Below are positions 1,576 to 61,341 of a DNA stretch of 64,000 nucleotides, in pieces. The notes under the pieces are model-generated. The model searched no databases. It was not told the origin of the DNA and saw only the letters and a program-made list of their open reading frames with translations. Made by a program: the position numbers and the translations under genes. Origin of the DNA: an uncultured Gemmatimonadota bacterium (GTDB lineage: Bacteria; Blakebacterota; Blakebacteria; Blakebacterales; Blakebacteraceae); the NCBI GenBank assembly GCA_964637695.1, contig CAZWVF010000003.1:14838-78837 (forward strand), read 5' to 3'. Each line of letters opens with the position of its first letter. The stretch's first letter is position 1.

Positions 1576-1617
1576 CAGCCTGCCGACAGAGGACAGGACA
1601 GAAAAGGAAATCGGGAA

Positions 1618-6443: not shown

Positions 6444-6497
6444 ATCGTTCTATTGATAAGACAGGAAACGGGCAGGTTCCGACAAACGGGTGTTGCC

Positions 6498-7283: not shown

Positions 7284-7293
7284 ATTTCCATCG

Positions 7294-8094: not shown

Positions 8095-8216
8095 GGTTAT
8101 CTCCGATCTGCTGTCTCGGTTTCGACTTTACAGCAGCAGGTTTAGGATACCACCTCCGCTCCCCTTTCTGTTACTGTCTAATTATCATCCCTCTGTTTTT
8201 CAGTGTGGTCACTCGT

Positions 8217-9479: not shown

Positions 9480-9480
9480 C

Positions 9481-11559
9481 ATGCTCGATGCACTCTTCTT
9501 TCCGAAATCGGTTGCCGTAATCGGCGCATCGACAAAAGATCTGTCAATAGGCAACAGGATCATCAGGAACCTGCACGACTTCGGTTACAAAGGCTCCATT
9601 TATGCCATCAATCCCAGGGGAGAAGAGGTCAGAGGGCTGGAACCATTCGCGTCCATACTCGATGTTCCAGACGATGTTGAGCTGGTGCACATCGTTATCC
9701 CCTCGAAATATGTCCCCCAGGCTGTTGATGACTGCGGGAAGAAGGGTGTCAGGGTAGCGATCATCAACACTGCCGGTTTCAAAGAGGTGGGAGGGGAAGG
9801 TGTTGAGCTGGAGGATCAGGTTGTCGCCAAAGCCGGTGAGTACGGTATCAGGATTTTCGGACCGAACTGCCAGGGGATTATCAACACCGATCCCGATATA
9901 AGGGCTTACTGCAACTTCACATTCACACGACCTTCAGAAGGTTCCATCTCCATCGTTGCCCAGAGTGGTGGTGTAGGGGAGGTGCTGAACCAGCGATTCT
10001 CAGAGCTGGATGTTGGAGTCAGGATGTACGCCTCCAACGGCAATGCCTGCGACATTTCCATCCCCGAAGTAATCCGCTACTGGGGATCGGATGAGAAGAC
10101 CAGAGTGATCGTGGTTTACATAGAGAGTCTTGCCGATCCGCTCGAGTTCATGGAGGCAGCCAGGGAGGTAGCTGCCGGCAAGCCTGTCCTCGGCATGAAA
10201 GCCGGCCGGACGGCAGAAGGTGCCAGGGCTGTCTCCTCCCACACCGGAGGTCTGGCTCAGCAGGAGATCGCGATAGAACTGATATTCAATAAGACCGGTA
10301 TCGTGACCTTCCGGGACCAGGAGGAACTGTGTCAGGCGGCGGTGGCCTTTGCTTCTCAACCTGTTCCCGGTGGTAACAGGGTAGGGCTGATTACCAATAC
10401 CGGTGGACCGGCCATTATCGCGACAGACGAGCTGGTAGATGCCGGCCTGGTTATCCCTCCACTCTCTGATAAGGCCGAAAACATTCTTAAGGAAAAGCTG
10501 CATGCTGCTGCCTCCATTTCCAATCCGATAGACGTACTGGCAACTGCAGGAGCGGAACACTTCAAAGCGGCCGCTGATGTATTGATGGATGAAGAGGAGA
10601 TAGACAGCATATACATTAATTTCGTCACGCCTTTCTTCGTCGATAACGAAAGTGTCGCGCGGGTACTGGTAGAGGTTAACCAGGCCGGTTTCAAGCCCGT
10701 TGTCTGCAATCTCATGACCGACAGGGTTGAGTGGGCCGATACGCTCAGGATCCTGAAAGAGGGAGGGATCCCCTGTTACAGTTTCGCCGAAACTGCCGCA
10801 AAGGCTCTGGCTGCCATGACACGTTATGGCGGGCTGCGCTCCAGGAATGTGGGCGAATCCCCTGCCTTTGATGATATAGATCGTGTGCAGGCGGAGAAAG
10901 TCATTGAAAACGCCACGACCGGTGGAACAGGAATGTTGACTACCACGCAGGTACACAGACTGCTGGAGGCATACGGGATACCTGCCGCGGCCTGGAAGGT
11001 GGCAACATCCGCATCGGAAGCTGTCGCCGCAGCAGGGGAAATAGGTTTTCCGGTAGTTGTGAAAGTCGATTCCACGTCGATTGTTCACAAATCCGACGAA
11101 GGTGGTGTAGCAGTTGATCTGAGCGATGCAGAATCGGTTGAATCTGTTGTGAACGGGATGAACGAGAGATTTGGAGCCGACGATCTCAGGTTCCTGGTTC
11201 AGAAATATGTGCCGGGTGGGAGGGAAGTGATAATAGGGGCGACGGCTGAAGAAGGTCTGGGACACCTTATCATGATCGGACTGGGTGGCATCCTTGTTGA
11301 AGTTCTCAAGGATGTGTCGTTCGCGATAACCCCTGTGACGGAGTATGAAGCCCGGGAGCTGATGAGTTCACTTAAATCATATCCTGTACTGGAAGGGATT
11401 CGGGGTGAGGAGGGGGTCAACAGGGATGCACTGATCGGAATCGTGCTGAGGATCTCACAGATGGTTACCGATCATCCCTCCATTCGGGAGATTGACCTGA
11501 ATCCCGTTATCGCCTGTGAGAAGTATGTGTCTGTTGTCGATGCCAGGATCGTAATCTGA
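9481..11559 (+). CDS. acyl-CoA synthetase (NDP/ADP-forming), fused alpha+beta domains (Acd type)
   Basis: N-terminal CoA-binding VAVIGAS...IYAINP, succinyl-CoA-synthetase-like flavodoxin domain, then C-terminal ATP-grasp domain (GFPVVVKVDSTSIVHKSDEGGVAVDL). The start overlaps the stop of the upstream gene (TAGcATG), so translational coupling is likely. Confidence 0.85.
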   Translation: MLDALFFPKSVAVIGASTKDLSIGNRIIRNLHDFGYKGSIYAINPRGEEVRGLEPFASILDVPDDVELVHIVIPSKYVPQAVDDCGKKGVRVAIINTAGFKEVGGEGVELEDQVVAKAGEYGIRIFGPNCQGIINTDPDIRAYCNFTFTRPSEGSISIVAQSGGVGEVLNQRFSELDVGVRMYASNGNACDISIPEVIRYWGSDEKTRVIVVYIESLADPLEFMEAAREVAAGKPVLGMKAGRTAEGARAVSSHTGGLAQQEIAIELIFNKTGIVTFRDQEELCQAAVAFASQPVPGGNRVGLITNTGGPAIIATDELVDAGLVIPPLSDKAENILKEKLHAAASISNPIDVLATAGAEHFKAAADVLMDEEEIDSIYINFVTPFFVDNESVARVLVEVNQAGFKPVVCNLMTDRVEWADTLRILKEGGIPCYSFAETAAKALAAMTRYGGLRSRNVGESPAFDDIDRVQAEKVIENATTGGTGMLTTTQVHRLLEAYGIPAAAWKVATSASEAVAAAGEIGFPVVVKVDSTSIVHKSDEGGVAVDLSDAESVESVVNGMNERFGADDLRFLVQKYVPGGREVIIGATAEEGLGHLIMIGLGGILVEVLKDVSFAITPVTEYEARELMSSLKSYPVLEGIRGEEGVNRDALIGIVLRISQMVTDHPSIREIDLNPVIACEKYVSVVDARIVI

Positions 11560-11600
11560 AGTGTCCTGAGTCAGGGCACAAGGAGGGAGGGCAATACCAG

Positions 11601-13154
11601 GTGGCTGAATGGCTGAACCTTGGAGAGATATTAAGGGTAAATGCGGGCAAGTTCCGGGGGAAGATATGCCTGAAGGATGCAGAGCGAAGCCTTACTTTCG
11701 AAGAGGTCAACTCCAGGGTCAACCGTCTGGCTCAGGGGTTCCTGGATATCGGGCTGAAAAAGGGAGATCGTGTGGCGGTCTTCCTCGATAACTCGGTCGA
11801 GATCTGTGAAGTCTATTTTGCAGCAGCCAAAACCGGTGTCGTGGTTGCACCGATCAATTTCCGTCTCGATCCGAAGACAGTCTGTTATATTACCGACAAT
11901 TCCGATGCCAGGGCGCTGGTTGTGCACGATGAGTGGACGCCGATGTTCGATGAGATGAAGGGTGATCTGCCGCGTGTCGAACATTTCCTCAGCGTTGGTG
12001 AAGAGAGTTCCGGATGGACTGATTATGAAAGTTTTCTGAGCAGTTACCCCGATAAGGAACCACATGCAGCGGTCCTGCCCTCCGATCCATGGTTGCAGCC
12101 GTACACCTCAGGTACTACAGGGGTACCGAAGGGTATTGTCAGGTCCCACGAATCGTATATCGCCTTCTATCTGATCAACGCCGGTGATTTCGGTTTCACG
12201 AGCCGGGACATCTGCCTGAACGTCATGCCCCTCTGTCATGTGAACTCCACCTTCTTCACATTCACATTCACATATATAGGAGGCGCGGCGTATATCCACC
12301 CGGCCAGATCTTTCCAGCCACTGGAGATACTCGAAGTTATCGAGAGAGAGAAGATCACCTTCATATCCCTGATCCCGACCCACTATAACATCATCCTGAA
12401 CGCTCCAAGGGAGGAGGCCGAGAAGTACGACGTTTCCTCGATACGAAAACTTCTCTGTTCCTCAGCCCCTGTATTCGCCGAATGTAAAAAAGCCGTGATG
12501 GAGTTCTTCCCGGACGCCGAGCTCTATGAGGCATATGGTTCAACAGAGGCCGGCATAGTGACCACCCTCATGCCGTGGGATCAGATGAGTCATCTTGGAT
12601 CAATCGGAAAGGAATCGGCCGGTACAGACACAATCAAACTGCTCGACGAGGATGGCAATGAGGTCCCCGTGGGAGAGGTCGGGGAGATCTACTCCCGCAG
12701 CCCGATGATGTTCACCGAGTACTACAAGATGCCTGAGATGACCAGGATCTCATTCAGGGGTGATTATTTCTCAGCGGGTGATATGGGCAGAAAAGATACC
12801 GATGGTTACTACAGCATCGTCGACCGGAAGGACAACATGATCATCACCGGCGGTGAGCATGTTTACCCATCGGAAGTGGAGAGTGTCATATGCTCCCACC
12901 CGGGAGTTTTCAGTGCGGCGGTGATCGGACTGCCCCACGAGAAATGGGGTGAGGCAGTTACTGCCATCGTGGTTCCCAGGGATGATCATTCTCTGGAAGA
13001 GGAAGAGATTATCACTCATTGTGCCGGTGAACTGGCGTTATTCAAAAAGCCGAAGGCGGTAATATTCATTTCACAGGATGAGATGCCCACAACGGGCAGC
13101 GGCAAGATACTGCACCGGGTACTTCGAGAACGCTTCAGTGGCGGGCAGACCTGA
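11601..13154 (+). CDS. AMP-forming acyl-CoA ligase (aromatic/alicyclic acid-CoA ligase, BadA/AliA-like)
   Basis: AMP-binding signature YTSGTTGVPKGIV, YGSTEAG, GEIYSRSPMMFTEYYK, the hinge D...ITGGEHVYPSEVE, and the C-terminal GKILHRVL lysine motif. Confidence 0.85.
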   Translation: MAEWLNLGEILRVNAGKFRGKICLKDAERSLTFEEVNSRVNRLAQGFLDIGLKKGDRVAVFLDNSVEICEVYFAAAKTGVVVAPINFRLDPKTVCYITDNSDARALVVHDEWTPMFDEMKGDLPRVEHFLSVGEESSGWTDYESFLSSYPDKEPHAAVLPSDPWLQPYTSGTTGVPKGIVRSHESYIAFYLINAGDFGFTSRDICLNVMPLCHVNSTFFTFTFTYIGGAAYIHPARSFQPLEILEVIEREKITFISLIPTHYNIILNAPREEAEKYDVSSIRKLLCSSAPVFAECKKAVMEFFPDAELYEAYGSTEAGIVTTLMPWDQMSHLGSIGKESAGTDTIKLLDEDGNEVPVGEVGEIYSRSPMMFTEYYKMPEMTRISFRGDYFSAGDMGRKDTDGYYSIVDRKDNMIITGGEHVYPSEVESVICSHPGVFSAAVIGLPHEKWGEAVTAIVVPRDDHSLEEEEIITHCAGELALFKKPKAVIFISQDEMPTTGSGKILHRVLRERFSGGQT

Positions 13155-13185: not shown

Positions 13186-14253
13186 ATGGAAGATGCGATG
13201 ACCATCAGAGGATGGATGATGACAGGTGCCGGTCAGCCTTTCGAAGAAGGCTCGATTCCGGTCGAATCGATACAGCCGGGTGAAGCTCTCATCGAAGTTG
13301 CCGGATGCGGTGTCTGTCATACAGATATCTCCTTCCTGCATTTTGGTGTCAAGACGCGCGCCGGGCTTCCCCTGGTCCTGGGGCATGAAATCAGCGGTAC
13401 GGTTGTGGAGGTCGGCGATGGGGTGGACGCTTCACTGGCCGGCAAACCGGTCCTTGTGCCGGCTGTCCTGCCATGCGGTGAATGCGAATTATGCAGGTCG
13501 GGTGACCTCAGAATCTGTCGTGCACAGATAATGCCCGGCAATGACCGGCATGGGGGCTTCGCATCTCATGTTGTTGTGCCGGCTCGTTATCTATGTCCGG
13601 TCGATGATACGGTACTGGCAGATCACAAACTGTGGGAGCTGGCAATCGTATCAGATGCCGTAACCACACCGTTTCAGGCTGTCAGACTTTCCAACCTCAA
13701 GGAGGACGATCTGGCGGTGGTTATCGGAACAGGTGGGATCGGGATCCATGCTGTGCAGATAGCAGCGGCGGTGGGAGCGAAAGTAGTGGCTCTCGATATT
13801 GATGATGTCAAACTGGATGTGGCTTCCAGGCATGGTGCCGATGCCGTTATCAATGTATCCGGTCTGGATATCAAAGAGATCAGGGGAAACCTCAAAGAAG
13901 AAGTATCACGCATCGGTGCACCGAAATTGAAATGGAGGATATTCGAGACATCCGGAGTGGGAGCGGGGCAGGAGCTGGCCTACTCCCTGCTCAATTTCGG
14001 AGCTCATCTGGCAGTTGTCGGTTTCACGATGGACAAGCTGGAGTTGAGGTTGAGCAATCTGATGGCATTCGATGCAACCGCCATGGGGAACTGGGGCAGC
14101 GATCCGACGCTCTATGCCGAAGTGCTCGACTGGATAGCCGACGGTAGAATCCAGGTTAAGCCATTTATTGAAAAACATCCTCTAAGTTCGATTAACGAGG
14201 TGTTTGATTCGGTGCATGCAGGAGAACTTCAGGGCAGGGCAGTTCTCGTTTAA
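13186..14253 (+). CDS. Zn-dependent alcohol dehydrogenase (MDR family; possibly a 6-hydroxycyclohexene-carbonyl-CoA dehydrogenase Had-like or secondary alcohol dehydrogenase)
   Basis: GCGVCHTDISF and GHEISGTVVEVG are catalytic Zn ligand motifs. The structural-Zn Cys cluster is CGECELCRSGDLRIC. Rossmann motif VIGTGGIGIHAVQIAAAVGAKV. Confidence 0.85.
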   Translation: MEDAMTIRGWMMTGAGQPFEEGSIPVESIQPGEALIEVAGCGVCHTDISFLHFGVKTRAGLPLVLGHEISGTVVEVGDGVDASLAGKPVLVPAVLPCGECELCRSGDLRICRAQIMPGNDRHGGFASHVVVPARYLCPVDDTVLADHKLWELAIVSDAVTTPFQAVRLSNLKEDDLAVVIGTGGIGIHAVQIAAAVGAKVVALDIDDVKLDVASRHGADAVINVSGLDIKEIRGNLKEEVSRIGAPKLKWRIFETSGVGAGQELAYSLLNFGAHLAVVGFTMDKLELRLSNLMAFDATAMGNWGSDPTLYAEVLDWIADGRIQVKPFIEKHPLSSINEVFDSVHAGELQGRAVLV

Positions 14254-14269
14254 TCAGAGGAGTTGTAGA

Positions 14270-14845
14270 ATGTCACTCACCGAATCGACAATGCTGCCAA
14301 TCGGCACTGTCGCTCCTGATTTCATTCTCCCTGACACCGACGGATCGAAGGTATCGCTGGAAGATCTGTCCGGCAATGTCGGGCTGGCAGTGATCTTCAT
14401 GTGCAACCACTGCCCCTACGTGAAACACATACAGTTCAAGCTGGCAGATCTGGCCTGGGAGTATCAGGAACCGGGGATTCAGTTCGTCGGAATCAACTCG
14501 AACGATATCGAGGCGTATCCCGAAGACAGTCCCGAGCTCATGAGAGATGATAAAGCACGGGTCGGCTATCCCTTCCCATATCTGTTCGATGAGACCCAGG
14601 ATATTGCCAAAGCCTACCGGGCAGCCTGCACACCCGACATCTACCTGTTCGACGGTGACAATAAACTTGTATACCGTGGCCAGTTCGACAGCAGCCGCCC
14701 GAATTCGGGTGACCCGACCGGCGAGGATCTCCAGGCAGCGATGGACGCTCTTCTGGACAACCTGCCGGTGCCGGAAGATCAGGTCCCGAGCATCGGATGC
14801 AACATCAAGTGGAAGCCGGGAAACAGTCCTGACTACTTCGAGTAG
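14270..14845 (+). CDS. thioredoxin-fold thiol-disulfide oxidoreductase (AhpC/TSA / thioredoxin-like family)
   Basis: AGAGGA RBS at 14256-14261 then ATG 14270. MSLTESTMLPIGTVAPDFILPDTDGSKVSLEDLSGNVGLAVIFMCNHCPYV contains the CxxC motif. The track ORF starts at 14204 and overlaps the ADH 3' end. Confidence 0.7.
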   Translation: MSLTESTMLPIGTVAPDFILPDTDGSKVSLEDLSGNVGLAVIFMCNHCPYVKHIQFKLADLAWEYQEPGIQFVGINSNDIEAYPEDSPELMRDDKARVGYPFPYLFDETQDIAKAYRAACTPDIYLFDGDNKLVYRGQFDSSRPNSGDPTGEDLQAAMDALLDNLPVPEDQVPSIGCNIKWKPGNSPDYFE

Positions 14846-14956: not shown

Positions 14957-17452
14957 CTAAAAGAGGTCGTCCAGTTCGTCCGCCGAGCCTTCCGGCATCT
15001 CTCCCTGCTCCTGAAGAGTCCTCTGCAGCAGTTCGCTCTCCAGTTTCGTAAACATCGGATCGAGCTGATAAATGAAGTAGGGGATACCCTCATCCTGGTT
15101 CAATCTGGCTGTAAGGGCCTCCACCAGGTCGGGAGCGCCGACAACGGCCACAACCTTTCCAGACGCATCCAATAGCTGGTATGCACCTGGTTCAGCCGGA
15201 ACTTCAGCAACCTGCCCGGCAGTGAAATCAAACCATTCACGCGGAGGCAGGGCAGCAGGCTCGATCTCCAGGCGGGTGTCGCAGCGCAGACAGCGGCCAC
15301 CTTCGGCTTCCGACCCGCTGCAGGTCAGACCCGGTTCCACGGTATTGAATGATCTGCGTTCTTCCAGGGCCGGCCGGGGCATCTCCTGCCGCTGCAACGC
15401 CGCGAATCCTTCTGCACACCCCGGATATGACGGAATTGAATCACGTTCAATCAATTGAAGCGAGATATCTCCGGAACCTCCCAGGAAGGAATCAACAGCT
15501 TCAGCAGTGCGTCTGGCGGAGGCAACAGCCTCTATAACCGATAGAGGGCCGGTGGCGAAATCGCCTGCAGCGAATACTTCCGGTCGATCAGTCGTGCCTT
15601 TCCCGGCATCGATCTTCAGAGGAGAGGCGTTGAAATCCCAGTCTGTCTCCTGACCGATAGCCAGGATCACACTGTCGGCGCGAAAGGAGCATTTTTCACT
15701 GTCGTCATATGTAGGAGAAAATCTCCCCTCCTGGTTAAAAACTGAGATACATCGTCTGAACTCGATACCCTTCACTGCTCCATCATCGCTGTGGATAGAA
15801 GTGGGTCCCCACCTGTGGTGGATGTTCACACCCTCTTCGAGGGCCTCCCTGATCTCCGTTTCGTATGCAGGTATCTCATCTTCAGATTCGAGGCAGAGCA
15901 GGTCGATCTTTTCGGCACCAAGTCTCCAGGCCGACCGTGCCACATCGATGGCAACGTTGCCGCCGCCTACGATCACACAACTGCCGTGCAGATCAGGAGC
16001 TGTTCCGATGTTGATCTCACGCAGGAATTCCAGTCCCCGGTAAACCCCGTCCAGATCGCTTCCAGGCAGGGGAATCGTTTTGCTCCGGCCGGCACCAATG
16101 GCGAGAAGCAGGGCGTTATACCCGTCGCCGAGCAGCTCCTCCACGGTCCCATCACTTCCCAGCTCGAAACCGGTGACTACTTCAATGCCAAGATCGGTGA
16201 TTTCGGTCAGTTCACGGTCCAGCCCCCCGCGTGGCAGTCGAAAGGCAGGGATGGCGGTCCGGAGCATGCCCCCGATACCCTCTTCTTTGTCCAGCAGTGT
16301 CACTCGATGTCCGGCAGCGATCAGGAAATAAGATGCCGTCAGCCCGGCCGGGCCGGCACCGATGACGGCAACTTTCTTCCCGGAGGGGGCGGGAGTCGGG
16401 AAGGCACTCTTCCACCTGCCGTCGTCCTCTTCGGCGGCTGTCCTCTTTATCGCCCTGATTGAAATCGGTTCGTTGATTTCACCGCGGCGGCAAACCTGCT
16501 CACAGGGGTGATAGCAGATGTGTCCGAGAGTGAAAGGCATTGGTGCACGTTCCCGAACGACAGCGGCAGCGTCGGCAAAGCGGCCTTCGGCTGCAAGGCC
16601 CACGTAGAGAGGCACGTCGGTTCCGGCAGGGCAGCCGGCCCGGCAGGCGACCAGTGCATCGTGTCGATCTCCTGCAGGAAGATCCCGGTCGCGCAGCGCA
16701 CCTGTTGGACAGACTTCCACGCAGGCTGTGCAGAAATGGCAGTCCGACTCGGCCAGTGAAGGAGCTTTCGCGCCGATCCAGACCCTGCCCTCACTGACCG
16801 TGAAGCCAATGGCGTCCACTCCGCGCAGATCCCTGCATGCTCTCACGCAGCGAGTGCAGCCGATGCACAGATTGTAATCACGCGTTAAGAGCGGATCACT
16901 GGTTGCCTGCGGTCTGTTTTCGGGATGGAAACGACCCAGATTGGCGGGCAGACCGACATATTCCGCAACCCTTTCAAGTTCGCAGTTGCCCAGCAGAGAG
17001 CAGCATCGTTCATCGACCGGGACATCTGTTGAACAGGGTTCCCTGCTGCAGCCGACCTTCTGTGCACACGTCAGGCATGCGTGAGGATGATGGTGGAAAA
17101 TCCCGGCCAGTTTCTCCCGGCGGAGTTCTTTCAGATCTTCTCTTTCGACCTGAACCTGCATGCCCTCTTCGACCCGGGTCATACAGGCTCGAACCGGTTC
17201 TGCCAATTCTTCCACGGCAACCATGCAGAGGCCGCAGCCTTCATCGGGTCTTTCAGCAGACCGGTCGGAGGTGATCTTCTCACTGCCCTGGAATACTTCG
17301 GGCCATTCTTCGAGACCGTCCCAGGGTGGCAGGCCGGGATGAGCGCAGAAGGCAGGTATGTAGAGACCGGCCCCCCTTGAAGCTTTCAGAATAGTGGTAC
17401 CGGATGGAACCTCGACGGCACTGCCATTAATAGTAAGCCTGACGCTGCTCAT
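14957..17452 (-). CDS. multidomain iron-sulfur flavoprotein. It has an N-terminal 2Fe-2S ferredoxin-like domain, NuoG/HndD-type 4Fe-4S modules and a GltD-like (glutamate synthase small-chain) FAD/NAD(P)H domain. It is probably an NAD(P)H:ferredoxin oxidoreductase serving the adjacent reductase.
   Basis: MSSVRLTINGSAVEVPSGTTILKA...CGLCMV (2Fe-2S), CIGCTRCVRACRDL and CHFCTACVEVCPTGAL (4Fe-4S), CRAGCPAG...HICYHPCEQVCRRGE, then VAVIGAGPAGLTASYFLIAAGHRVTLLDKEEGIGGMLRTAIP (GltD dinucleotide fold), and an acidic C-terminal ~150 aa of unknown function. All plus-strand ORFs between 15.2 and 17.4 kb are antisense shadows. Confidence 0.8.
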   Translation of the reverse strand: MSSVRLTINGSAVEVPSGTTILKASRGAGLYIPAFCAHPGLPPWDGLEEWPEVFQGSEKITSDRSAERPDEGCGLCMVAVEELAEPVRACMTRVEEGMQVQVEREDLKELRREKLAGIFHHHPHACLTCAQKVGCSREPCSTDVPVDERCCSLLGNCELERVAEYVGLPANLGRFHPENRPQATSDPLLTRDYNLCIGCTRCVRACRDLRGVDAIGFTVSEGRVWIGAKAPSLAESDCHFCTACVEVCPTGALRDRDLPAGDRHDALVACRAGCPAGTDVPLYVGLAAEGRFADAAAVVRERAPMPFTLGHICYHPCEQVCRRGEINEPISIRAIKRTAAEEDDGRWKSAFPTPAPSGKKVAVIGAGPAGLTASYFLIAAGHRVTLLDKEEGIGGMLRTAIPAFRLPRGGLDRELTEITDLGIEVVTGFELGSDGTVEELLGDGYNALLLAIGAGRSKTIPLPGSDLDGVYRGLEFLREINIGTAPDLHGSCVIVGGGNVAIDVARSAWRLGAEKIDLLCLESEDEIPAYETEIREALEEGVNIHHRWGPTSIHSDDGAVKGIEFRRCISVFNQEGRFSPTYDDSEKCSFRADSVILAIGQETDWDFNASPLKIDAGKGTTDRPEVFAAGDFATGPLSVIEAVASARRTAEAVDSFLGGSGDISLQLIERDSIPSYPGCAEGFAALQRQEMPRPALEERRSFNTVEPGLTCSGSEAEGGRCLRCDTRLEIEPAALPPREWFDFTAGQVAEVPAEPGAYQLLDASGKVVAVVGAPDLVEALTARLNQDEGIPYFIYQLDPMFTKLESELLQRTLQEQGEMPEGSADELDDLF

Positions 17453-17510
17453 TATATGACCTTATATGATCTTCATGGGGCTGGAACTAGCCACATGGGA
17501 TCCTTGAAGA

Positions 17511-17786
17511 TTACCAGGAGTGCTCGATTGCACCAGGTTCACAGGCCGCCGTGCAGGGCAGGGGAGGCTGCGAGCCGACCGGTTTGCATTCGGCGCACGA
17601 GTACTTGATCTTTTTCCTGTGTTCATCCGTGACGGCTGCCACGACATCGTCGTAATCGTCGGTAATCATTTCCAGTACCCCCGCCGGGCACGCAGCAACG
17701 CAATCATTACAGGATGTGCACAGGTTGCTGTCGATCGTGATGAAGAATTCTCCGGAGCCGTCCTTGTAACCATAGTTTGCTCTCAT
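17511..17786 (-). CDS. 2[4Fe-4S] ferredoxin, Alvin/Thauera Fdx type (probable electron donor to benzoyl-CoA reductase)
   Basis: CTSCNDCVAACP and CAECKPVGSQPPLPCTAACEP. The second cluster has the extended Cx2Cx8Cx3C spacing seen in the Allochromatium/Thauera benzoyl-CoA-reductase ferredoxin. The start overlaps the stop of the upstream ATPase gene (ATGA). Confidence 0.8.
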   Translation of the reverse strand: MRANYGYKDGSGEFFITIDSNLCTSCNDCVAACPAGVLEMITDDYDDVVAAVTDEHRKKIKYSCAECKPVGSQPPLPCTAACEPGAIEHSW

Positions 17787-18658
17787 GACCTTACTTTTCC
17801 TTCTTTCTCGGCCAGAGCCCTGGCAAAGAGAGCACCTCCCAGAGCACCGGCGATCTGGGTGTCATGTTTCGGCTCGAGTGCCTCCACACCCATTTGTTTT
17901 GTCAGTCGCCTGACGACTCCGGCGTTCTTGGCGATGCCTCCGGTTATCGCGAAATCTTCCTCCACACCTATCCGTTCGAGAAGGGCGAAGACACGATCGG
18001 CCATGGCGGAACAGTACGCAGCCAGTACATCGTTCTTGGGCCATCCCTGACGCAGCAGACCGGTTGCCTCCGATTTGGCGAATATTACACATGTACTGCT
18101 TACAGGCTCCGGTTCCTCATCTATATCGAAGCTCAGATCCCCTATCTCCTCGATCGAGATCTCGAGCAGGTCGGCGAACACTTCCATGCCGCGTCCCGTT
18201 CCGGCGGCACATTTGTCGTTCATCAGGAACTCCTGGACCTTCCCCTTCTCGTCGATCCGGATCGCCTTGCAGTCCTGGCCGCCCATATCCAGAATCGTCC
18301 TCACGGCAGGGCCGTACATGTAGTTCGCACCTCGTCCGTGACAGGCGATCTCTGTAATTGCCCGGTCAGCAAAAGGTACGTTCACGCGCCCGTAGCCGGT
18401 ACCCACTACGTAATTGAGGTCATCCAGGGTCATTCCGGTGTCTTCAAAGGCCCAGTTCATGGCATTCTGTGCACTCTCGGGGCTGTCTGAACCGGTCCGC
18501 ATGTTGCTGTAGGCGAAGAGTTCTCCATCGGTCATTATCACCGCCTGCGAACTGACCGATCCGACGTCGACTCCGGCCGATATCACACCGGCCTGTTGCC
18601 AGTCTCTGTCAGGATCTCTCCAGTTGTATTCTTTCCAGCGCCAGTACTCGGTCGTCAT
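17783..18658 (-). CDS. class I benzoyl-CoA reductase ATPase subunit (BcrA/BzdQ/BadF-like, 291 aa)
   Basis: AGVDVGSVSSQAVIM, NDKCAAGTGRGME, TCVIFAKSEATGL, IAGALGGALFA are activase-fold motifs with the Cys pair. Its start overlaps the upstream gene's stop by 4 nt. Confidence 0.8.
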   Translation of the reverse strand: MTTEYWRWKEYNWRDPDRDWQQAGVISAGVDVGSVSSQAVIMTDGELFAYSNMRTGSDSPESAQNAMNWAFEDTGMTLDDLNYVVGTGYGRVNVPFADRAITEIACHGRGANYMYGPAVRTILDMGGQDCKAIRIDEKGKVQEFLMNDKCAAGTGRGMEVFADLLEISIEEIGDLSFDIDEEPEPVSSTCVIFAKSEATGLLRQGWPKNDVLAAYCSAMADRVFALLERIGVEEDFAITGGIAKNAGVVRRLTKQMGVEALEPKHDTQIAGALGGALFARALAEKEGKVRS

Positions 18659-19455
18659 GACTGCTCACCCCTTTCGCTGTCTGCTGCGGCCCTTTCGGCT
18701 GCCACCAGGGCGGCACCTATGGCTGCTGTGTACTCCGGATCGGGTGGTATCAGCAGTTCTGTCTCCAGGTCGCGGCCGAGTGAATCTATGAAGCCGACGT
18801 TGTAGGCCAGACCACCAACCAGAGCCACTGCCGGTTCTATTCCGACCCGCCGGACCATTGAGCTTATCCGGCTGGCTATGGCATCGTGGACAGCGCGGGC
18901 GATGTCTTCCTTCGGGGTCTTTGCATGAACCAGGCTCACCACTTCCGACTCGGCGAACACAGCACACTGGGCATTCATCGGGATCTCTCGATCCGACCTC
19001 AGAGAGAGAGCTCCGAACTCTTCCAGCGGAACTTCCAGGGCGCGGGCCATCGACTCGGTGAAGGAGCCGGCTCCGGCCGCGCATTTTTCGTTTACGACGA
19101 AGTCGAGTACCTTGCCCCCCTCATCGCATCTGACACCGCGACCCTCTTCGGCACCCACGTCAATAACGGTCCGCACGTTGTCGAAGAAGAAGTGTGCTCC
19201 CCTGGCTGCCGCCCCGACCTCCGTAATGTCGTCACGGGCCATGGGGACATCTTTCCGGCCTGCTCCAGTAGAAGTGATGTTCGGGATTTCGCTGTAATCG
19301 AGGTCGGCTGTCTGTGATGCCTGTTTCAATGCCTCCTGAAGTGCACCCTCCGTGTCGAGCCCTGCCGTAACCAGCGACTTGCTGATAATCTCTCCGTCGC
19401 GGAGGAATACCACCTTGACATTCTTGGCACCCATGTCCACACCAATTGAAATCAT
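18655..19455 (-). CDS. class I benzoyl-CoA reductase ATPase subunit (BcrD/BzdP/BadG-like, 266 aa)
   Basis: MISIGVDMGAKNVKVVFL, NEKCAAGAGSFTE, QCAVFAESEVVSL, TAAIGAALVAA. AAGGGAG RBS 9 nt before ATG. Confidence 0.8.
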   Translation of the reverse strand: MISIGVDMGAKNVKVVFLRDGEIISKSLVTAGLDTEGALQEALKQASQTADLDYSEIPNITSTGAGRKDVPMARDDITEVGAAARGAHFFFDNVRTVIDVGAEEGRGVRCDEGGKVLDFVVNEKCAAGAGSFTESMARALEVPLEEFGALSLRSDREIPMNAQCAVFAESEVVSLVHAKTPKEDIARAVHDAIASRISSMVRRVGIEPAVALVGGLAYNVGFIDSLGRDLETELLIPPDPEYTAAIGAALVAAERAAADSERGEQS

Positions 19456-19479: not shown

Positions 19480-20790
19480 TCAGGCCATGGCCCGGCTCAG
19501 ATCGAGCGTCTCCATGAATGCATCGATCCGGGTCATGGTTCTGGCTTCATCGAATTCCCGCTCATCACCCATGTTTCCCTCGAATGTCATGACAGGGTAT
19601 CCTGCTTCCTGCAGGGCCAGCCTGTTCTCGGCTATTCCCACCGAAAGGCCTTCGCAGCCGCGGTTGTAATGCAGCATTACACCTTCGAGCTGCCACTCCC
19701 TGGCGATACGGATCATCATCTCGTTCTTGTAGCGGGGAGAATAGAAGTGCTGCCACTCCGGTTTGCTCAGGTTCCAGTCGGCCAGAACGCGCAGGGCCTG
19801 CTCGCGCGTTTCCAGCTTGATCCCCAGTTGTTCGGGAGTGGTCCGCGGGCCCCAGCTGCCGTCGGGTTTGACCTCCCAGATACCTATCAGGCCGAAAGTG
19901 TATAGTGAACCCACAGAAACCACTCCGAATTCCTCCAGATAGCGGAAAATCTTGAGGAAGCCCCAGGGAGGCTGTGTATCGGAGATCAGGCGGCACCTCT
20001 CGTTGGCTACCGCTGCAATTCCATTATCTACCCGATCCTGTACCTCGTCGCGGAGTTCCTCGTAGAAGTCAGCCACCGATCCGGCGTGCTTCTCAAGCGT
20101 GCCCAGCACGTAGAGAGAGTACATGGTCTTTTCATCCAGAGGAGCTGGTATCGCCTTGTTGAGGGTGCAGATCTCGGCCCAGAGGGAGGTACTGCGGCAC
20201 TCATTATTTACCGCCTCGATGAGCAGGTCGTCGTTATACTCACGACCCGTTACTTTTTCCATCCACTCGATACCATCCATCATCTGGCCCACCACGTAAT
20301 CGAGCCCATTGTCGTCCAGCTCTTCGTATGGACCGCATCCAACATCGATGCAGAAGCTGGGGATATCGGGCTCCATGTCGGTGACCACCTGGTACCATTT
20401 TGCATGGCTGCAGCAGATGTGATCCTGCCAGATGAAATCGGGTTTGGGGAATTTGCCTCCGAATGCATACTCGTCGAGCAGGATCGAACCCCAGTAGTTT
20501 CGCATGTAGGAACAGAGGTCACGGGCATAACCCGCCTTTTCAACCGCTTCCAGACATCGTGTGGAAAACTCCCTGTTAAATGCGATAGAGGCTCCGTAGG
20601 GCTCCGATGTTATCGACCTGACATCAGTTCCCAAACCGGCAGGGATGGCGTCGAATGACCATGCACCTCCAGCCCAGCGGATGGCTCCTTTTCCGTGGGC
20701 ATCTGCATAGTCGGTGTAGTATTCCTGCCTCAGTTCCTTTGCTTTATTCCAGCATTCCAGGGGCCTGGTGGGGTACTTTGCATCGGCCAT
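19480..20790 (-). CDS. class I benzoyl-CoA reductase catalytic subunit (BcrB/BzdO/BadE-like, 436 aa)
   Basis: 436 aa, HgdA/BcrB-family. AAGGAG RBS 6 nt before the ATG at 20790. Size and gene order match the BzdO/BcrB position. Confidence 0.8.
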
Positions 20791-20832: not shown

Positions 20833-21960
20833 TTAGAAAAGGTCCTCGTCGCTCAGCATCTCCAGGAACGCCTCCACACGGACCCTGAACTGTCCGAGCG
20901 GCACCGTGACATCGAATTCCAGGAAGAGTGTTTTTATTCCGGCCTCATGGAAGGCTTTCTGAAGTGCGGGGATATCCAGCTCATGCGGATCGCAGAACTT
21001 CTGCTGTATCAGGATTGCCCCGCTTGCATCGTAGTCCTTTGCAAGCTCAAGCACATGCGGAATACGGGTACGTACCGGCCAGTCTTTCGAGGGACAGGCG
21101 GGACGCTCAACGTAACGGCGGGCTATCGACTCGAGCGGATCTCCGCCGTTCGATTCTGCTTCATTCCAGAAATACCGCGTCCCGGTGCAGTGATCGTCGA
21201 TAACAACTGTCGCTCCTACCGACTCAACCATCTCGACGAAATCGGTATCGTCATCTTCGCTGCCGACCAGCATAAGACGTACTCCGGTGGAACGGCCGGT
21301 CGAGTGATCCTTCAACCGGGGGAGAACCCTCTCCATCTCCCGGTTGTGGTCCTCTTTCGCAGTGGTCTGGCTGGAAACGGTCAGGTACATGGCCTCCAAC
21401 CCGGTCAGTGGAGGATTCTCCTGTTGACGCAGGTCGTAGATTTCTTTCTGATGCCGGCGATTCCGGTTCATCAGTTTGATTCCGCCATTCAGCTTTTCAT
21501 CTGAAATCGGTTCACCCGACCACTCCTCCAGGGAACTCTTGAATTTCTCCAGTTCGCCCCTCAGGAATGGTACGGCTCGCTGGCTCTGCACATGATTGGG
21601 CATCGGCAGGTAGTAGCTGAAATCGATCGGAATGTGCATCTCCCAGCTAGAGAATGCCTGCCTGATGTGCAGGCACGACTGGGCTATCATGATGCCATCC
21701 AGGTAATCGAACCGGCCCTTCAATCCCTGTGCAAGGCAATCGCGGCAGAAGGGGCAGAACATGCCGAAGATATGGGGCTCGGTTAAGTCCTGAGGTTCAT
21801 GACTTCCCAGAATCCGCACCGGGAGGATATCGGCGGCACAGAGGATCTCTTCCGGAACGTATGTACAGAAGTATCCCATCACTTTTCCGCCTGTTTCCTC
21901 TTTCCAGTTCTGTGCGTAGGAATGGCGGTTTTCGGCCCATTTCTGGAACTGCTGCATCAT
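20833..21960 (-). CDS. class I benzoyl-CoA reductase catalytic subunit (BcrC/BzdN/BadD-like, ~375 aa)
   Basis: MMQQFQKWAENRHSYAQNWKEETGGKVMGYFCTYVPEEILCAADILPV is an HgdB/BcrC-family N-terminus. GGAGG RBS 8 nt before the ATG at 21960. The track start at 21978 uses a TTG with no RBS. Confidence 0.75.
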   Translation of the reverse strand: MMQQFQKWAENRHSYAQNWKEETGGKVMGYFCTYVPEEILCAADILPVRILGSHEPQDLTEPHIFGMFCPFCRDCLAQGLKGRFDYLDGIMIAQSCLHIRQAFSSWEMHIPIDFSYYLPMPNHVQSQRAVPFLRGELEKFKSSLEEWSGEPISDEKLNGGIKLMNRNRRHQKEIYDLRQQENPPLTGLEAMYLTVSSQTTAKEDHNREMERVLPRLKDHSTGRSTGVRLMLVGSEDDDTDFVEMVESVGATVVIDDHCTGTRYFWNEAESNGGDPLESIARRYVERPACPSKDWPVRTRIPHVLELAKDYDASGAILIQQKFCDPHELDIPALQKAFHEAGIKTLFLEFDVTVPLGQFRVRVEAFLEMLSDEDLF

Positions 21961-22007
21961 ATTTACTTCCTCCCGCAATTCGTGTGCAGCGCTTGCTACA
22001 ATATACT

Positions 22008-22027: not shown

Positions 22028-22405
22028 TATTAATTCTAGGCGTGTGGTAAGACAGAGTCAAGGCGGTTTGGCCATAATTCTACACTTCAGACACTGAACA
22101 TCGGTACCTATCCCTCGTTAAAATTCCACCCTGCTTGATAATGGAAATCCATGAATCTCCATGATCGCTCACAATCTAAAAGTCGCAGATTGGTGGCGGG
22201 GGTCCGCTACGTTTTATACCGTCAAAACGCTACTGAAACCTCTAGCAAGTACTCCTCATTTGCCACAAACGCTTATTCTATGCAGTCGAATGGAATATTG
22301 GCGAGGGACAGGGTAAATAGGAGCTTGAAACAGAAGATGTAGAATACGTGTAACTTGTTATGATTCAAAGAGGACGGAATTTTTCGGGGGGACAGATTGT
22401 GCACA

Positions 22406-22467: not shown

Positions 22468-22836
22468 ATGAGAATAATTATGAAACGTTCAGCCTCAGCG
22501 ATACCGATCCCGATCAGGCGAGCCTTGCGCAAGTTTGGTCAGGATATCCGTGACGCAAGATTGCGACGACGAATTCCGGTAGTCGTCATGGCCGAAAGGG
22601 CGTCAATCAGCCGCACTACGCTGAACAAGCTGGAAAAAGGCGAACCGGGCGTCTCGATTGGCAGCTATGCCACCGTGCTTTTCGTATTGGGTATGGCCGA
22701 AAGGCTCAGCGATCTGGCGGATGTGAAGAGCGATATAGTGGGGCTTGAACTGGAAGAGGAGCGTTTGCCCAAGCGTATCCGGAAATCAGGCCGGCGGAAA
22801 TCGGTTCAGCCTGACCTGAAAATAAAAAAAGTGTAA
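22468..22836 (+). CDS. hipB: XRE-family HTH regulator, HipB-like antitoxin
   Basis: SISRTTLNKLEKGEPGVSIGSYATVLFVLGM is a Cro/C1-type HTH. It lies immediately upstream of hipA. Start at 22468 or at the M at 22480. Confidence 0.7.
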   Translation: MRIIMKRSASAIPIPIRRALRKFGQDIRDARLRRRIPVVVMAERASISRTTLNKLEKGEPGVSIGSYATVLFVLGMAERLSDLADVKSDIVGLELEEERLPKRIRKSGRRKSVQPDLKIKKV

Positions 22837-22841
22837 AAGCA

Positions 22842-24074
22842 ATGGATACCGAAGTTCTTGTCTATGTTGATGTTGACGGCGCTTCGTACCTCACGGGACG
22901 GCTATGGGCACGAGTACGTAAGAACCGTCAAAGCGCCACATTTGAGTATGAACAAACATGGCTTGAGTATAAAGACCACTTCTCCCTGGAGCCGGCTTTA
23001 AAACTGGGTTCCGGTCCCTATCACACGGCAGGGGATAAACCTTTGTTTGGCGCAATCGGCGATTCCGCGCCCGATCGCTGGGGCAGGATGCTCATGCGCC
23101 GGGCCAAACGTCGGAGCGCAGAACGTGCAGGCGAGACGCCACGCACTTTGATGGAAATTGACTATCTGCTGATGGTCGATGACGAAGTGCGGCAGGGCGC
23201 ATTGCGATTTGCGACCACGGAGGGTGGACCATTTCTTTCCGCACGTGATGCTGCCCCCATTCCACCATTGATTGACCTGCCAAAGCTGTTATCGGCTGCC
23301 GACCATGTGGTCAGCGATTCTGACAGTGATGAAGATTTGCACCTGTTGCTTGCGCCTGGCTCATCATTGGGTGGTGCCCGTCCCAAGGCTTCTGTCCGGG
23401 ACAGGGACGGGGCGTTGGCGATTGTCAAGTTTCCGCACCGAGGTGATGAAATCGACACTGTGAGATGGGAGGCAGTCGCGTTGACGCTTGCTGCAAATGC
23501 AGGTCTTTCGGTGCCGAAATGGCGATTGGAGAATGTTGTCGATAAGCCGGTCCTTCTCTTGCGACGCTTCGATCGCATGGACGGCATGCGCATCCCCTTT
23601 CTGTCAGCCATGAGTATGCTTGGTGCCACAGATAACGAGGCTCGCAGCTATCTCGAATTCGTGGATGCCCTGCGTCAGCACGGGGCAGCTCCGAAAGAAG
23701 ACATGCACGCCCTGTGGCGGCGTATCGTCTTCAGCATCCTGATTTCCAATACGGACGACCACCTGCGCAATCACGGCTTTCTTTATGAAGGCCCCGATGG
23801 ATGGCGGTTGGCTCCGGCATATGACCTTAATCCTGTGCCTGTGGACATCAAACCACGCATCCTGACGACAGCGATCAATCTTGATGACGGTACAGCATCG
23901 GTTGATCTGGCGATGAGTGTTGCCGAGTATTTTGAACTCACGACTGATAAAGCGCGCAGCATAGTATCTGAGGTCGAAAGTGCAGTGGCCCAATGGCGAG
24001 AGACTGCAACAGGCTTGGGCTTTCGTGCCGGCGAAATCGACCGCATGGCATCAGCCTTCGAGTATCAATCATAA
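22842..24074 (+). CDS. hipA: HipA-family serine/threonine kinase toxin
   Basis: The HipA N-terminal coupling domain and the C-terminal kinase motifs LAPGSSLGGARPKASV and ISNTDDHLRNHGFLY...LAPAYDLNP are present. Gene order is hipB-hipA. Confidence 0.85.
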   Translation: MDTEVLVYVDVDGASYLTGRLWARVRKNRQSATFEYEQTWLEYKDHFSLEPALKLGSGPYHTAGDKPLFGAIGDSAPDRWGRMLMRRAKRRSAERAGETPRTLMEIDYLLMVDDEVRQGALRFATTEGGPFLSARDAAPIPPLIDLPKLLSAADHVVSDSDSDEDLHLLLAPGSSLGGARPKASVRDRDGALAIVKFPHRGDEIDTVRWEAVALTLAANAGLSVPKWRLENVVDKPVLLLRRFDRMDGMRIPFLSAMSMLGATDNEARSYLEFVDALRQHGAAPKEDMHALWRRIVFSILISNTDDHLRNHGFLYEGPDGWRLAPAYDLNPVPVDIKPRILTTAINLDDGTASVDLAMSVAEYFELTTDKARSIVSEVESAVAQWRETATGLGFRAGEIDRMASAFEYQS

Positions 24075-40253: not shown

Positions 40254-40267
40254 AGAGAATCCAGGCT

Positions 40268-60752: not shown

Positions 60753-61341
60753 TTAATCCGATATCTCTCCAGAGTCTTCATTTGTCTGCCAGGGCCCGCC
60801 GGGCGGCCAAGATTGAATGGTTGTTTTCTCGTCACGGGCTGATGCAAGGACCGGCAGCAGGAAGGCAGCCAGTTCCTCGATAACAATCTTCAGATCTTTG
60901 GCCGGTTTTTCCAGTCGGTTCTTACTCAGAAATGCCTGCCACTGTTTCTGCTTTTCTGGGCTGCTGCCGAATTCCCCGCTCAGGGCGGTCGGTGTATTCT
61001 CGGGTAGAGGCGTCTGACGACGTGTGAAGGTGTTCCGAACAGCTGCGGCCAAGGGAGTATTATTGTACTGCTGTGCTCGTGATAGGATGAGAATATCGTA
61101 AAAGTCCTTCATGCGGCTGTTGGCGAAATCGCGTCCGACTGCCGAACCATATGAGCATCAGAGCAGCACCTTTGAGAGTAAACTGCTCTACATGGGAAGA
61201 GCAGGAAAGACGGTAAAGGAAGCGCTCAATGGCGAAGCGGGTAAAGAGCAGGTTTGGATCGACACCCTCATCTTGGCTGAGATTCAATAGCCGCTGTTTA
61301 ACAGAGGCGGCTATGTTTTTCAGCGGTGATCGCGCAGTCAT
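60753..61341 (-). pseudogene. AbiEii-type nucleotidyltransferase toxin gene, disrupted by a frameshift
   Basis: The N-terminal part (ORF 61060..61341: MTARSPLKNIAASVKQRLLNLSQDEGVDPNLLFTRFAIERFLYRLS...FTLKGAALM) and the C-terminal part (ORF 60753..61112) lie in different frames and overlap around 61060-61112. Confidence 0.6.

Follow-up and report, generated by a model that had tools for sequence, protein, structure and literature searches.

The electron source of class I benzoyl-CoA reductases is settled only for Thauera, in which it is a 2-oxoglutarate:ferredoxin oxidoreductase, whereas the donor of the bzd-type enzymes has long been carried along as a “putative” annotation; to our knowledge, no BzdV, the flavoprotein that bears this annotation, has been characterized biochemically. 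Here we describe the two genes that follow the genes of a predicted bzd-type reductase in a 64,000-nucleotide stretch of contig CAZWVF010000003.1 (assembly GCA_964637695.1, an uncultured Gemmatimonadota bacterium), which is referred to as the window and in which all positions are counted from its first nucleotide. The first of these genes encodes a ferredoxin of 91 residues, the second an iron-sulfur flavoprotein of 831 residues. Among the systems to which this pair can be compared, BzdV of the Azoarcus bzd cluster has been annotated as “putative NADPH:ferredoxin oxidoreductase” (PMC5658619), and genes labelled BzdV have also been reported from genomes of Chloroflexi and Hermodarchaeota (PMC5736913, PMC8163825). 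As in the window, the bzdV gene of Azoarcus/Aromatoleum belongs to the gene cluster of a bzd-type reductase and lies downstream of a ferredoxin gene, and the same role has been proposed (PMC5658619, PMC5736913, PMC8163825). This likeness is one of gene context alone, and in the Azoarcus order bzdNOPQMSTUV the bzdV gene is not adjacent to the ferredoxin gene (PMC5658619), unlike in the cassette described here. The identical order of four reductase genes, ferredoxin gene and oxidoreductase gene is found in the thn operon of N47, where thnB-E encode a bzd-type tetrahydronaphthoyl-CoA reductase and are followed by thnF for a ferredoxin and thnG for an oxidoreductase (PMC12016498, PMC6849830). We liken these two systems by gene order, and the N47 substrate, tetrahydro-2-naphthoyl-CoA, sets that system apart from ours. 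In N47 extracts, the ATP-dependent reduction of tetrahydronaphthoyl-CoA was fastest with NADH and reached 69% of this rate with NADPH (PMC12016498).

That a flavoprotein of the GltD/Nfn kind can supply a class I reductase is supported by genetic evidence for AadN of Rhodopseudomonas palustris (PMC9973337). AadN is a fusion of NfnS and NfnL (“pattern B” Nfn) with two flavin adenine dinucleotide (FAD) sites and one NAD site, whereas the 831-residue protein has no NfnS/PyrK-like part and possesses an N-terminal half that resembles NuoG and HydA. AadN moreover serves a reductase of the Thauera/Rhodopseudomonas type together with an Alvin-type ferredoxin. The association of a reductase with an oxidoreductase is thus not new, in view of the BzdV annotations in Azoarcus, Chloroflexi and Hermodarchaeota, of thnG in N47 and, as a concept, of AadN (PMC9973337). 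What appears to be undescribed, as far as we could find, is a family delimited by a GIY-YIG domain, its derivation from a BfuA-type subunit, the permuted cluster motif in this setting, the NADH-type nucleotide site, and a near-absolute synteny of six genes in both prokaryotic domains.

We propose that the ferredoxin and the 831-residue protein constitute the electron-input branch of the bzd-type class I reductase, and that the flavoprotein acts as a non-bifurcating NAD(P)H:ferredoxin reductase. This is a reading of sequence data to which we assign a probability of roughly 0.55. It builds on the directly observed gene order, the conservation of domains and ligands, the fold assignments and the synteny statistics, from which we infer where the electrons flow, which nucleotide is preferred, that bifurcation is lacking and what the C-terminal domain does.

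The six genes form an operon on the minus strand in the order bzdN-O-P-Q, ferredoxin, 831-residue protein, and the coordinates are compiled in the table. Both open reading frames, of 91 and 831 residues, were recovered downstream of the reductase genes exactly where the preliminary description of this DNA had placed them. As to the reductase itself, the bzdN, bzdO and bzdQ products exceed the curated NCBIfam equivalog cut-offs, and two HGD-D genes and two BcrAD_BadFG genes follow each other without interruption, so the enzyme is predicted to be an ATP-dependent, bzd-type class I benzoyl-CoA or aryl-CoA reductase, its activity being read from sequence and gene context. Translation of bzdN probably starts at one of the ATG codons that lie shortly downstream of the listed TTG. 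The intergenic distances along the operon are 42, 24, -4, -4 and 58 nucleotides, and the ferredoxin start codon overlaps the stop codon of bzdQ by four nucleotides. A minus-strand scan for terminator-like hairpins revealed none within the operon, which is weak evidence. Promoter and terminator scans overall performed no better than shuffled controls, and the total of promoter-like sites in the region does not exceed the shuffle expectation; co-transcription is therefore argued from spacing and synteny only. The window is of metagenomic origin, and a protein that is 100% identical to the 831-residue product is encoded on contigs of GCA_006243175.1 and GCA_006240825.1, where the neighboring genes are likewise the same.

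Comparison with other genomes strongly indicates that ferredoxin and flavoprotein act together as the electron-supply pair of the reductase. From two collection scans, which listed few cultured organisms, and seven exact-protein look-ups, we gathered 21 independent loci, each with a relative that either carries the C-terminal domain or is cut by a contig end. Among the loci listed, the cassette-type ferredoxin gene lies immediately upstream in 20 of 21, Bzd ATPase genes precede the ferredoxin gene in every one of those loci that has enough upstream sequence, and the full BzdN-O-P-Q set is present in 16 of them. The cassette occurs in at least ten lineages (Thermoplasmatales/Thermoplasmata, Heimdallarchaeota, Hermodarchaeota, Bathyarchaeota, Deltaproteobacteria, Anaerolineae, Pirellulaceae, Latescibacterota, Ignavibacteriales and Bacillota), and a Hermodarchaeota homologue with 46% identity (P0095) lies in the same cassette. 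Because of this synteny, the dedicated electron-donor module tied to the reductase that had been postulated from the window alone is well supported.

The only exception is locus L005 of Dehalococcoidia (8850-11360), where the full-length relative adjoins a formate-tetrahydrofolate ligase gene and Bzd genes are absent. Together with the names that JGI and NCBI give to homologues, “formate dehydrogenase beta subunit” or “sulfide dehydrogenase”, this locus could be taken to mean that the protein is a generic GltD-like diaphorase whose partner is encoded elsewhere and which came to lie beside reductase genes by chance. With 20 of 21 loci syntenic across domains of life, such an explanation is hardly credible and close to refuted. 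The L005 relative also differs in its nucleotide motif, which is of the NADPH type (YRRS, i.e. YRR at the decisive site), and in its non-acidic tail (...NESLF), and in the window there is no molybdopterin or hydrogenase subunit nearby. L005 may represent an ancestral or alternative use of the GIY-YIG-bearing architecture. As to genes around the cassettes, Had-, Oah- and Dch-like genes flank it in L165 and L166. A gene for a small GNAT acetyltransferase (146-169 residues) adjoins the cassette in four distant lineages (L163, 4935-5375; L164, 12612-13076; L165, 12507-13016; L166, 12581-13045), usually as seventh gene after the flavoprotein gene, and is absent from the window.

The 831-residue protein itself had been described as a combination of a [2Fe-2S] domain, NuoG/HndD-like [4Fe-4S] modules and a GltD-like FAD/NAD(P)H domain, and Pfam and NCBIfam agree with this content, which indeed fits a pyridine nucleotide:ferredoxin oxidoreductase. 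An AlphaFold model of the protein is confident overall (mean predicted local distance difference test score 86.9, predicted template modelling score 0.82). In an alignment of 41 full-length homologues with 44-85% identity, which underlies all family counts given here, all 28 cysteines and His122 are invariant. The N-terminal [2Fe-2S] domain harbors a clade-specific insert of 26 residues that is missing in short relatives. In the His-ligated [4Fe-4S] motif, whose ligands can be tentatively assigned by analogy to NuoG and HydA, the canonical HxxxCxxC...GxCxLQ pattern is interrupted by a second clade-specific insert with four invariant cysteines (C135, C140, C150, C151). AlphaFold confidence is low at residues 129-149, as expected of a metal-dependent loop, and it is possible that this 4-Cys insert forms an extra metal site. 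In the ferredoxin-like module that follows, the match to the NuoG/HydA-type 2x[4Fe-4S] profile covers residues 187-253.

The GltD/NfnL-like module consists of Fer4_20 (PF14691, residues 269-342) and Pyr_redox_2 (PF07992, residues 359-646) with two Rossmann domains, and the Rossmann motifs for FAD and NAD(P)H are both present. Its cluster ligands are found in a CxxxC motif (270/274), at C313/C317/C321, at Lys336 and in a late CxxC motif (721/724), and the cysteines are all invariant. Residues of about 697-726 align with residues 15-44 of Thermotoga NfnB (...EEAQRCLQC), where its N-terminal “EEAxRCLxC” segment lies, and with the corresponding segment of StnC, which also comes late in the chain. 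The module is circularly permuted in that the GltD-type cluster motif has its first CxxC behind the flavin domains, an arrangement shared with NfnA and StnC. By analogy to dihydropyrimidine dehydrogenase and NfnB, C721, C724, C270 and C321 would hold one cluster, and C274, C313, C317 and K336 the FAD-adjacent one. Lys336 is likewise invariant and aligns with Lys165 of Tsi NfnA. This Lys is a ligand of cluster A7 in NfnA and sets NfnA and StnC apart from the bifurcating NfnL, which has a Glu (PMC12018979).

The best matches among solved structures are NfnA of NfnABC (9bov_A, 9n5u_A) and StnC of StnABC (8oh5_C), with expectation values of about 1e-96 in sequence and 1e-50 in Foldseek comparisons, and they rank ahead of NfnL/NfnB (4ylf_B), dihydropyrimidine dehydrogenase and GltD. 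In NfnA and StnC, the GltD-like FAD is a non-bifurcating entry site for NADPH, and a linear chain of clusters leads from there to a separate bifurcating core that is NuoF/NuoE-like (PMC10482914, PMC12018979). The 831-residue protein shares with them the combination of a GltD/NfnL-like FAD module with NuoG/HydA-like clusters, the permuted RCLxC ligands and the Lys ligand of the FAD-proximal cluster. It differs from them by a reversed domain order, by the absence of an Fdh-like domain and of BfuB/BfuC genes, and by a CLE motif in place of YRR, and it adds the 4-Cys insert, the GIY-YIG domain, the acidic tail and the linkage to a reductase operon. Its nearest relatives that share the N-terminal and GltD-like architecture yet lack the GIY-YIG domain are proteins of 704-712 residues from Elusimicrobia and a metagenome; their genes immediately follow NuoE-like and NuoF-like genes, and they are BfuA subunits. 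Neither BfuB (NuoF-like) nor BfuC (NuoE-like) genes were found in the 64-kb window or in any syntenic locus. These comparisons suggest that the Bzd-linked clade arose from a BfuA-type subunit whose partners were lost, which acquired the two inserts and the C-terminal module and which became part of the reductase operon. The preliminary description had named two observations that would together speak against its reading, namely a grouping with diaphorase subunits whose partners are encoded elsewhere and a gene that is not part of the reductase operon. The first applies insofar as the nearest relatives are subunits of multi-subunit Bfu enzymes, but the second does not, as the clade is operon-linked and never found beside Bfu partners.

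Two further kinds of relatives were noted. A third group of short proteins (665-719 residues) with a CLE-type motif and without GIY-YIG domain is encoded next to an FAD_binding_2 flavoprotein resembling fumarate reductase (L017, 955-5320; L020, 7453-12082; L088, 6529-10124). In an Acidobacteriota locus (L060, 2385-11899), a distant four-gene set similar to benzoyl-CoA reductase or HGD systems, with 24-41% identity to BzdNOPQ, is followed by the gene of a 650-residue GltD-like protein, in which 40 residues are inserted into the nucleotide domain and additional Fe-S motifs are found at the C-terminus.

The relationship to Bfu enzymes brings up electron bifurcation. A bifurcating or confurcating flavoprotein could split electrons between the ferredoxin and an acceptor of higher potential, which would be reached via the NuoG-like wire or the 4-Cys site, or it could recruit BfuBC from elsewhere in the genome. 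Such a mechanism would overcome the 100-200 mV by which NAD(P)H falls short of ferredoxin (PMC9304861). In NfnSL it is the GltD-like fold that bifurcates, all closest solved relatives come from bifurcating complexes, genes for BfuB and BfuC accompany those of the sister proteins, and the NuoG-like N-terminal part is the contact surface for BfuBC in Bfu enzymes (PMC12018979); also the invariant 4-Cys insert, whose role is unaccounted for, would be available. Nevertheless, we regard bifurcation as unlikely. No gene for a second acceptor or for BfuBC is present in any of the 20 syntenic loci or in the window, and a search across the whole 64-kb window for KorAB-like, pyruvate:ferredoxin oxidoreductase-like or second-acceptor genes found none. 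The clade-specific inserts sit in the very region that would have to contact BfuB. According to Pfam, the protein has a single flavin site and no NfnS/PyrK-like domain, nor is there a PyrK-like neighboring gene, and Lys336 matches the non-bifurcating NfnA and StnC instead of the bifurcating NfnL of NfnSL, in which a Glu takes its place (PMC12018979). Because this Lys ligand is common to the non-bifurcating NfnA and StnC, bifurcation is not favored for the 831-residue protein, as far as sequence can indicate.

The nucleotide site differs from that of the relatives in an informative manner. The motif after strand beta-2 is C520-L521-E522, with E522 in all 41 homologues, whereas YRR(T) is found at the corresponding site in NfnA, StnC, NfnB and the Bfu-linked sister proteins; the Arg-Arg pair expected for NADPH is hence lacking in the 831-residue protein. 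It is a general rule for Rossmann folds that an acidic residue at this position favors NADH and disfavors the 2'-phosphate of NADPH. Since the invariant Glu522 replaces the Arg pair of the NADPH-using relatives, this rule suggests that the site is of the NADH and not of the NADPH type. The higher rate with NADH in N47 extracts is in line with this reading (PMC12016498). The use of NADPH, which had been included when an NAD(P)H-dependent enzyme was first suggested, is therefore doubtful.

An NADH-type site would also suit a catabolic enzyme with NAD+ as acceptor, and this leads to the possibility that KorAB or a pyruvate:ferredoxin oxidoreductase mainly reduces the ferredoxin, while the 831-residue protein is a ferredoxin:NAD+ oxidoreductase or a buffer that balances the ferredoxin pool with NAD(H). 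Electron flow from ferredoxin to NAD+ would be downhill. In locus L167 (14097-16717), a two-subunit, KorAB-like 2-oxoacid:ferredoxin oxidoreductase (POR_N; TPP_enzyme_C+POR) is encoded 1.6 kb downstream of the cassette of a relative with 65% identity, so that one organism can have both this enzyme and the flavoprotein, and Chloroflexi have been reported to possess both korAB and “bzdV” (PMC5736913). The preliminary description had let the flavoprotein take the place of a 2-oxoglutarate:ferredoxin oxidoreductase, which is more than one window can show. However, a draining of reduced ferredoxin would compete with an ATP-spending consumer, and it would be hard to explain why the gene is an operon member in 20 of 21 loci. 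In addition, a 2-oxoacid oxidoreductase is lacking within 10 kb of many cassettes, including those on the complete or very long contigs L163 and L164, and NADH serves as donor in N47 extracts (PMC12016498). Such a reverse or buffering function therefore appears improbable to us.

In case of the ferredoxin, the preliminary description had assumed an Alvin-type protein with the motifs Cx2Cx2Cx3C and Cx2Cx8Cx3C. The first motif is correct (C23x2C26x2C29x3C33-P), but the second is Cx2Cx10Cx3C (C64x2C67x10C78x3C82). The C67-x10-C78 spacing corresponds to an 8-residue insertion and ranges from x9 to x12 in the 13 syntenic orthologues that were aligned. These orthologues carry the conserved sequence (M)xANYGYKDGSG as N-terminal extension, have an acidic loop that separates the two motifs and terminate with ...HSW, and in the protein encoded in the window only nine residues (EPGAIEHSW) follow the last Cys, C82. 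Two features define the AlvinFdx signature (PMC2984482): an insertion of 6-8 residues that separates two Cys ligands of cluster II, and about 20-43 residues, helical in part, beyond the last Cys. With AlvinFdx proteins such as Fdx of Thauera aromatica and BadB of R. palustris, the ferredoxin shares the 2x[4Fe-4S] type, the insertion between two cluster-II ligands and the role as donor to a class I reductase, the latter being predicted here. It differs from them as it lacks the C-terminal helix and has a conserved N-terminal extension of 22 residues and a longer spacer between the motifs, and there is no detectable sequence match: a PDB sequence search at an expectation value of at most 0.01 returned no Alvin, Thauera or Pseudomonas ferredoxin. 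The orthologues are also archaeal (Thermoplasmata, Asgard and Bathyarchaeota loci), whereas AlvinFdx proteins are confined to bacteria. The bzd-cluster ferredoxin of strain EbN1 is likewise not of the Alvin type (PMC2984482). By its sequence features, the protein of the window is a cassette-specific 2x[4Fe-4S] ferredoxin and not an Alvin-type one.

The last 150 or so residues of the flavoprotein, which had been regarded as devoid of any recognizable motif, in fact comprise the above-described NfnB-like segment, a GIY-YIG fold and a conserved acidic tail. DUF7508 is the only Pfam family that covers the C-terminal region, and a literature search for this name retrieved no paper that mentions it. 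In the model, residues of about 750-822 form the beta-beta-alpha-beta-alpha core of a GIY-YIG fold, and the family consensus of the domain matches the NCBIfam models of UvrC, Cho and DEDD-GIY-YIG proteins (best expectation value 3e-5). In the UvrC alignment, the first catalytic Tyr corresponds to position 758, which is Tyr here and Phe, Tyr or Ile in 19, 16 and 6 of the 41 homologues, the second corresponds to the variable position 769 (Ala here), and the catalytic Arg to position 779, which is Ala in 30 of 41. By extrapolation past the UvrC-aligned stretch, the catalytic Glu maps to the invariant Gln810 and the catalytic Asn to position 823, which is Ser here. Because the catalytic set is lost on mapping to UvrC, nuclease activity is very unlikely, as far as the sequence tells. 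For the GIY-YIG-glutaredoxin fusion AtGRXS16, a second, regulatory role has been proposed, and by analogy the domain could still function as nuclease or nucleic-acid binder, but the degenerate catalytic positions make this a far-fetched option. Unlike the N-terminal domains of UvrC and AtGRXS16, the domain has no conserved catalytic residues, is fused C-terminally to a redox enzyme and is followed by an acidic tail, which ends with ...ELDDLF in the 831-residue protein. We think that the dead GIY-YIG domain and the tail would rather form a module by which the ferredoxin or the reductase is docked or assembled.

The profile of the C-terminal domain matched 426 proteins among 1.84 billion cluster representatives, many of which are truncated fragments. 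In every match listed, the domain is at the extreme C-terminus, and full-length proteins have 800-856 residues. Shorter carriers (95-780 residues) were considered as potential other architectures, but eight of them that were inspected (608-743 residues) were mostly 5'-truncated fragments or had internal deletions. Matches of the last helix to the designed repeat protein 8fje and to AAR2 were judged spurious.

If the non-bifurcating reading is correct, the 831-residue protein would oxidize the pyridine nucleotide, bound at an NADH-type site, at the one FAD of the GltD/NfnL-like module. Single electrons would then move via the Lys336-ligated [4Fe-4S] cluster to the second GltD-type cluster and from there into the NuoG/HydA-like wire, i.e. 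the 2x[4Fe-4S] module, the His-ligated [4Fe-4S] cluster, the [2Fe-2S] cluster and possibly the 4-Cys metal site. The 91-residue ferredoxin would be reduced and pass the electrons on to the BzdPQ ATPase module, where ATP hydrolysis would drive them to the active site of BzdNO. Ring reduction, which is irreversible and coupled to ATP, would pull the energetically unfavorable transfer from NAD(P)H to ferredoxin, probably in a complex.

Several points weigh against this mechanism. Physiological potentials are about -280 mV for NADH, about -380 mV for NADPH and between about -420 and -500 mV for ferredoxin (PMC9304861), so that electrons from NAD(P)H have to climb 100-200 mV, and a site of the NADH type widens the gap; these are general ferredoxin values, which are applied here by analogy to this type of ferredoxin. 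In NfnA and StnC, the homologous module depends on the bifurcating BfuBC core for its function. The KorAB-like enzyme near the cassette of some relatives could reduce the ferredoxin directly and leave another role to the flavoprotein. Furthermore, the function of the 831-residue protein is a prediction, and N47 ThnG and Azoarcus BzdV are no more than putative members of its exact family. It is conceivable, albeit quite unlikely, that an NADH-specific donor closes the gap of about 200 mV by an undescribed type of coupling. This could be a bifurcation within a single polypeptide, with the 4-Cys site or the NuoG-like wire as second branch, or a stable docking onto the BzdPQ ATPase via the dead GIY-YIG domain and the tail, in which case ATP would drive electrons from NADH to benzoyl-CoA in one supercomplex. 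If so, the six genes would encode a self-contained machine that uses NADH and ATP for ring reduction, and this would explain the presence of class I reductases in Asgard archaea, Bathyarchaeota and other fermentative lineages.

Features of the bzd operon and of its immediate surroundings in the window
Feature	Coordinates	Strand	Evidence
831-residue iron-sulfur flavoprotein gene (BzdV-like), last of operon	14957..17452	-	open reading frame; Pfam and NCBIfam domains; full-length homologues 44-85% identity
Residues 1-105, NuoG/HydA-type [2Fe-2S] domain (C36, C73, C76, C90)	17138..17452	-	Fer2_4, expectation value 6.6e-13, residues 3-102; invariant Cys
Residues 120-160, His-ligated [4Fe-4S] motif (H122, C126, C129, C157 in “GxCELQ”)	16973..17095	-	alignments
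Residues 187-255, ferredoxin-like 2x[4Fe-4S] module (C196/199/202/206, C238/241/244/248)	16688..16894	-	Fer4_Nqo3, Fer4_7, Fer4_21; matches to NuoG, HoxU and FeFe-hydrogenase A6 N-terminal part
Residues 262-726, GltD/NfnL-like FAD and NAD(P)H module, two [4Fe-4S] clusters, circularly permuted	15275..16669	-	Fer4_20, Pyr_redox_2, PDB matches
Residues 736-822, C-terminal GIY-YIG-fold domain (Pfam DUF7508), degenerate catalytic residues	14987..15247	-	
Residues 823-831, acidic C-terminal tail, (D/E)(D/E)L(F/Y) end	14960..14986	-	41/41 aligned homologues; disordered in models
91-residue 2x[4Fe-4S] ferredoxin gene, cassette type	17511..17786	-	open reading frame; Fer4 families; 13 syntenic orthologues aligned
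bzdQ, ATPase subunit	17783..18658	-	TIGR03192, 441.5 bits vs cut-off 380.2
bzdP-like, ATPase subunit	18655..19455	-	BcrAD_BadFG, expectation value 1.8e-46; acyl-CoA dehydratase activase domain
bzdO	19480..20790	-	TIGR03191, 692.2 bits vs cut-off 448.6
bzdN	20833..21978	-	TIGR03190, 486.4 bits vs cut-off 453.8; alignment begins at residue 7
Promoter-like site TTGACT-17-TAGAAT upstream of bzdN	22033..22061	-	consensus scan, 10/12 matches; weak evidence
Had equivalog, next to the bzd operon	13186..14253	+	TIGR03201, 449.7 bits vs cut-off 338.65

The Had equivalog next to the bzd operon fits the context of a genuine benzoyl-CoA pathway. At 898-2580 (plus strand), a TetR regulator gene is followed by the gene of a crotonase-family protein, for which the Oah, BadI and MenB models give about equal scores, none of which reaches the respective cut-off; this protein may act as hydrolase in the ring-opening step of the pathway. 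A second system of the 2-hydroxyacyl-CoA dehydratase/benzoyl-CoA reductase family occupies positions 4194-9479 on both strands and comprises a 749-residue fusion of a ketopantoate reductase-like (ApbA/PanE) and an HGD-D part, two activator-type ATPases of 276 (plus strand) and 266 residues (minus strand), and an HGD-D subunit of 473 residues. Both HGD-D proteins score best with the HadB model, below its cut-off. Genes for ApbA, BcrAD and HGD-D are also found near the cassette in Heimdallarchaeota (L163), and an HGD-D gene near that of L166. At 9481-13154 (plus strand), genes for an ADP-forming acyl-CoA synthetase (692 residues) and an AMP-forming acyl-CoA ligase (517 residues) follow. The recurrence of this synthetase/ligase pair after the HGD-D gene in the Anaerolineae locus L166 (19183-22529) suggests that a larger conserved island exists.

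An AhpC/peroxiredoxin gene (14204-14845, plus strand) ends 111 nucleotides from the stop codon of the 831-residue protein gene and is convergent with this operon for an oxygen-sensitive enzyme, and this may be a protective pairing. On the other side, immediately upstream of the bzd operon and divergent from it, a toxin-antitoxin pair of a HipB-like helix-turn-helix protein (122 residues) and a HipA_C kinase (410 residues) is encoded at 22468-24074 (plus strand); a gene for an AbiEi-type antitoxin is found at 61338-61946. At 41031-42701 (plus strand), there is a gene for a 556-residue protein with a dihydroorotate dehydrogenase domain and the Fe-S domain of a PyrK-type electron-transfer subunit, which looks like a PyrD-PyrK fusion in a pyrimidine cluster with orotidine monophosphate decarboxylase (40196-41020).

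Taken for the family, the flavoprotein represents a discrete and rare group whose gene almost always takes the sixth place in the bzd cassette, in lineages that range from Proteobacteria-like bacteria to the Asgard archaea, which makes it a clonable candidate for the missing donor of bzd-type reductases. The proposal makes clear predictions: a preference for NADH over NADPH, a non-bifurcating FAD, a BfuA-like origin with lost partners, and a nuclease fold that has been reused as non-catalytic module. The interest would rise further if the energetics turned out to need a new coupling mechanism. If the proposal is true, the six genes would be a portable unit for the engineering of anaerobic dearomatization, and metabolic inferences from the genomes of uncultured organisms could become sharper.

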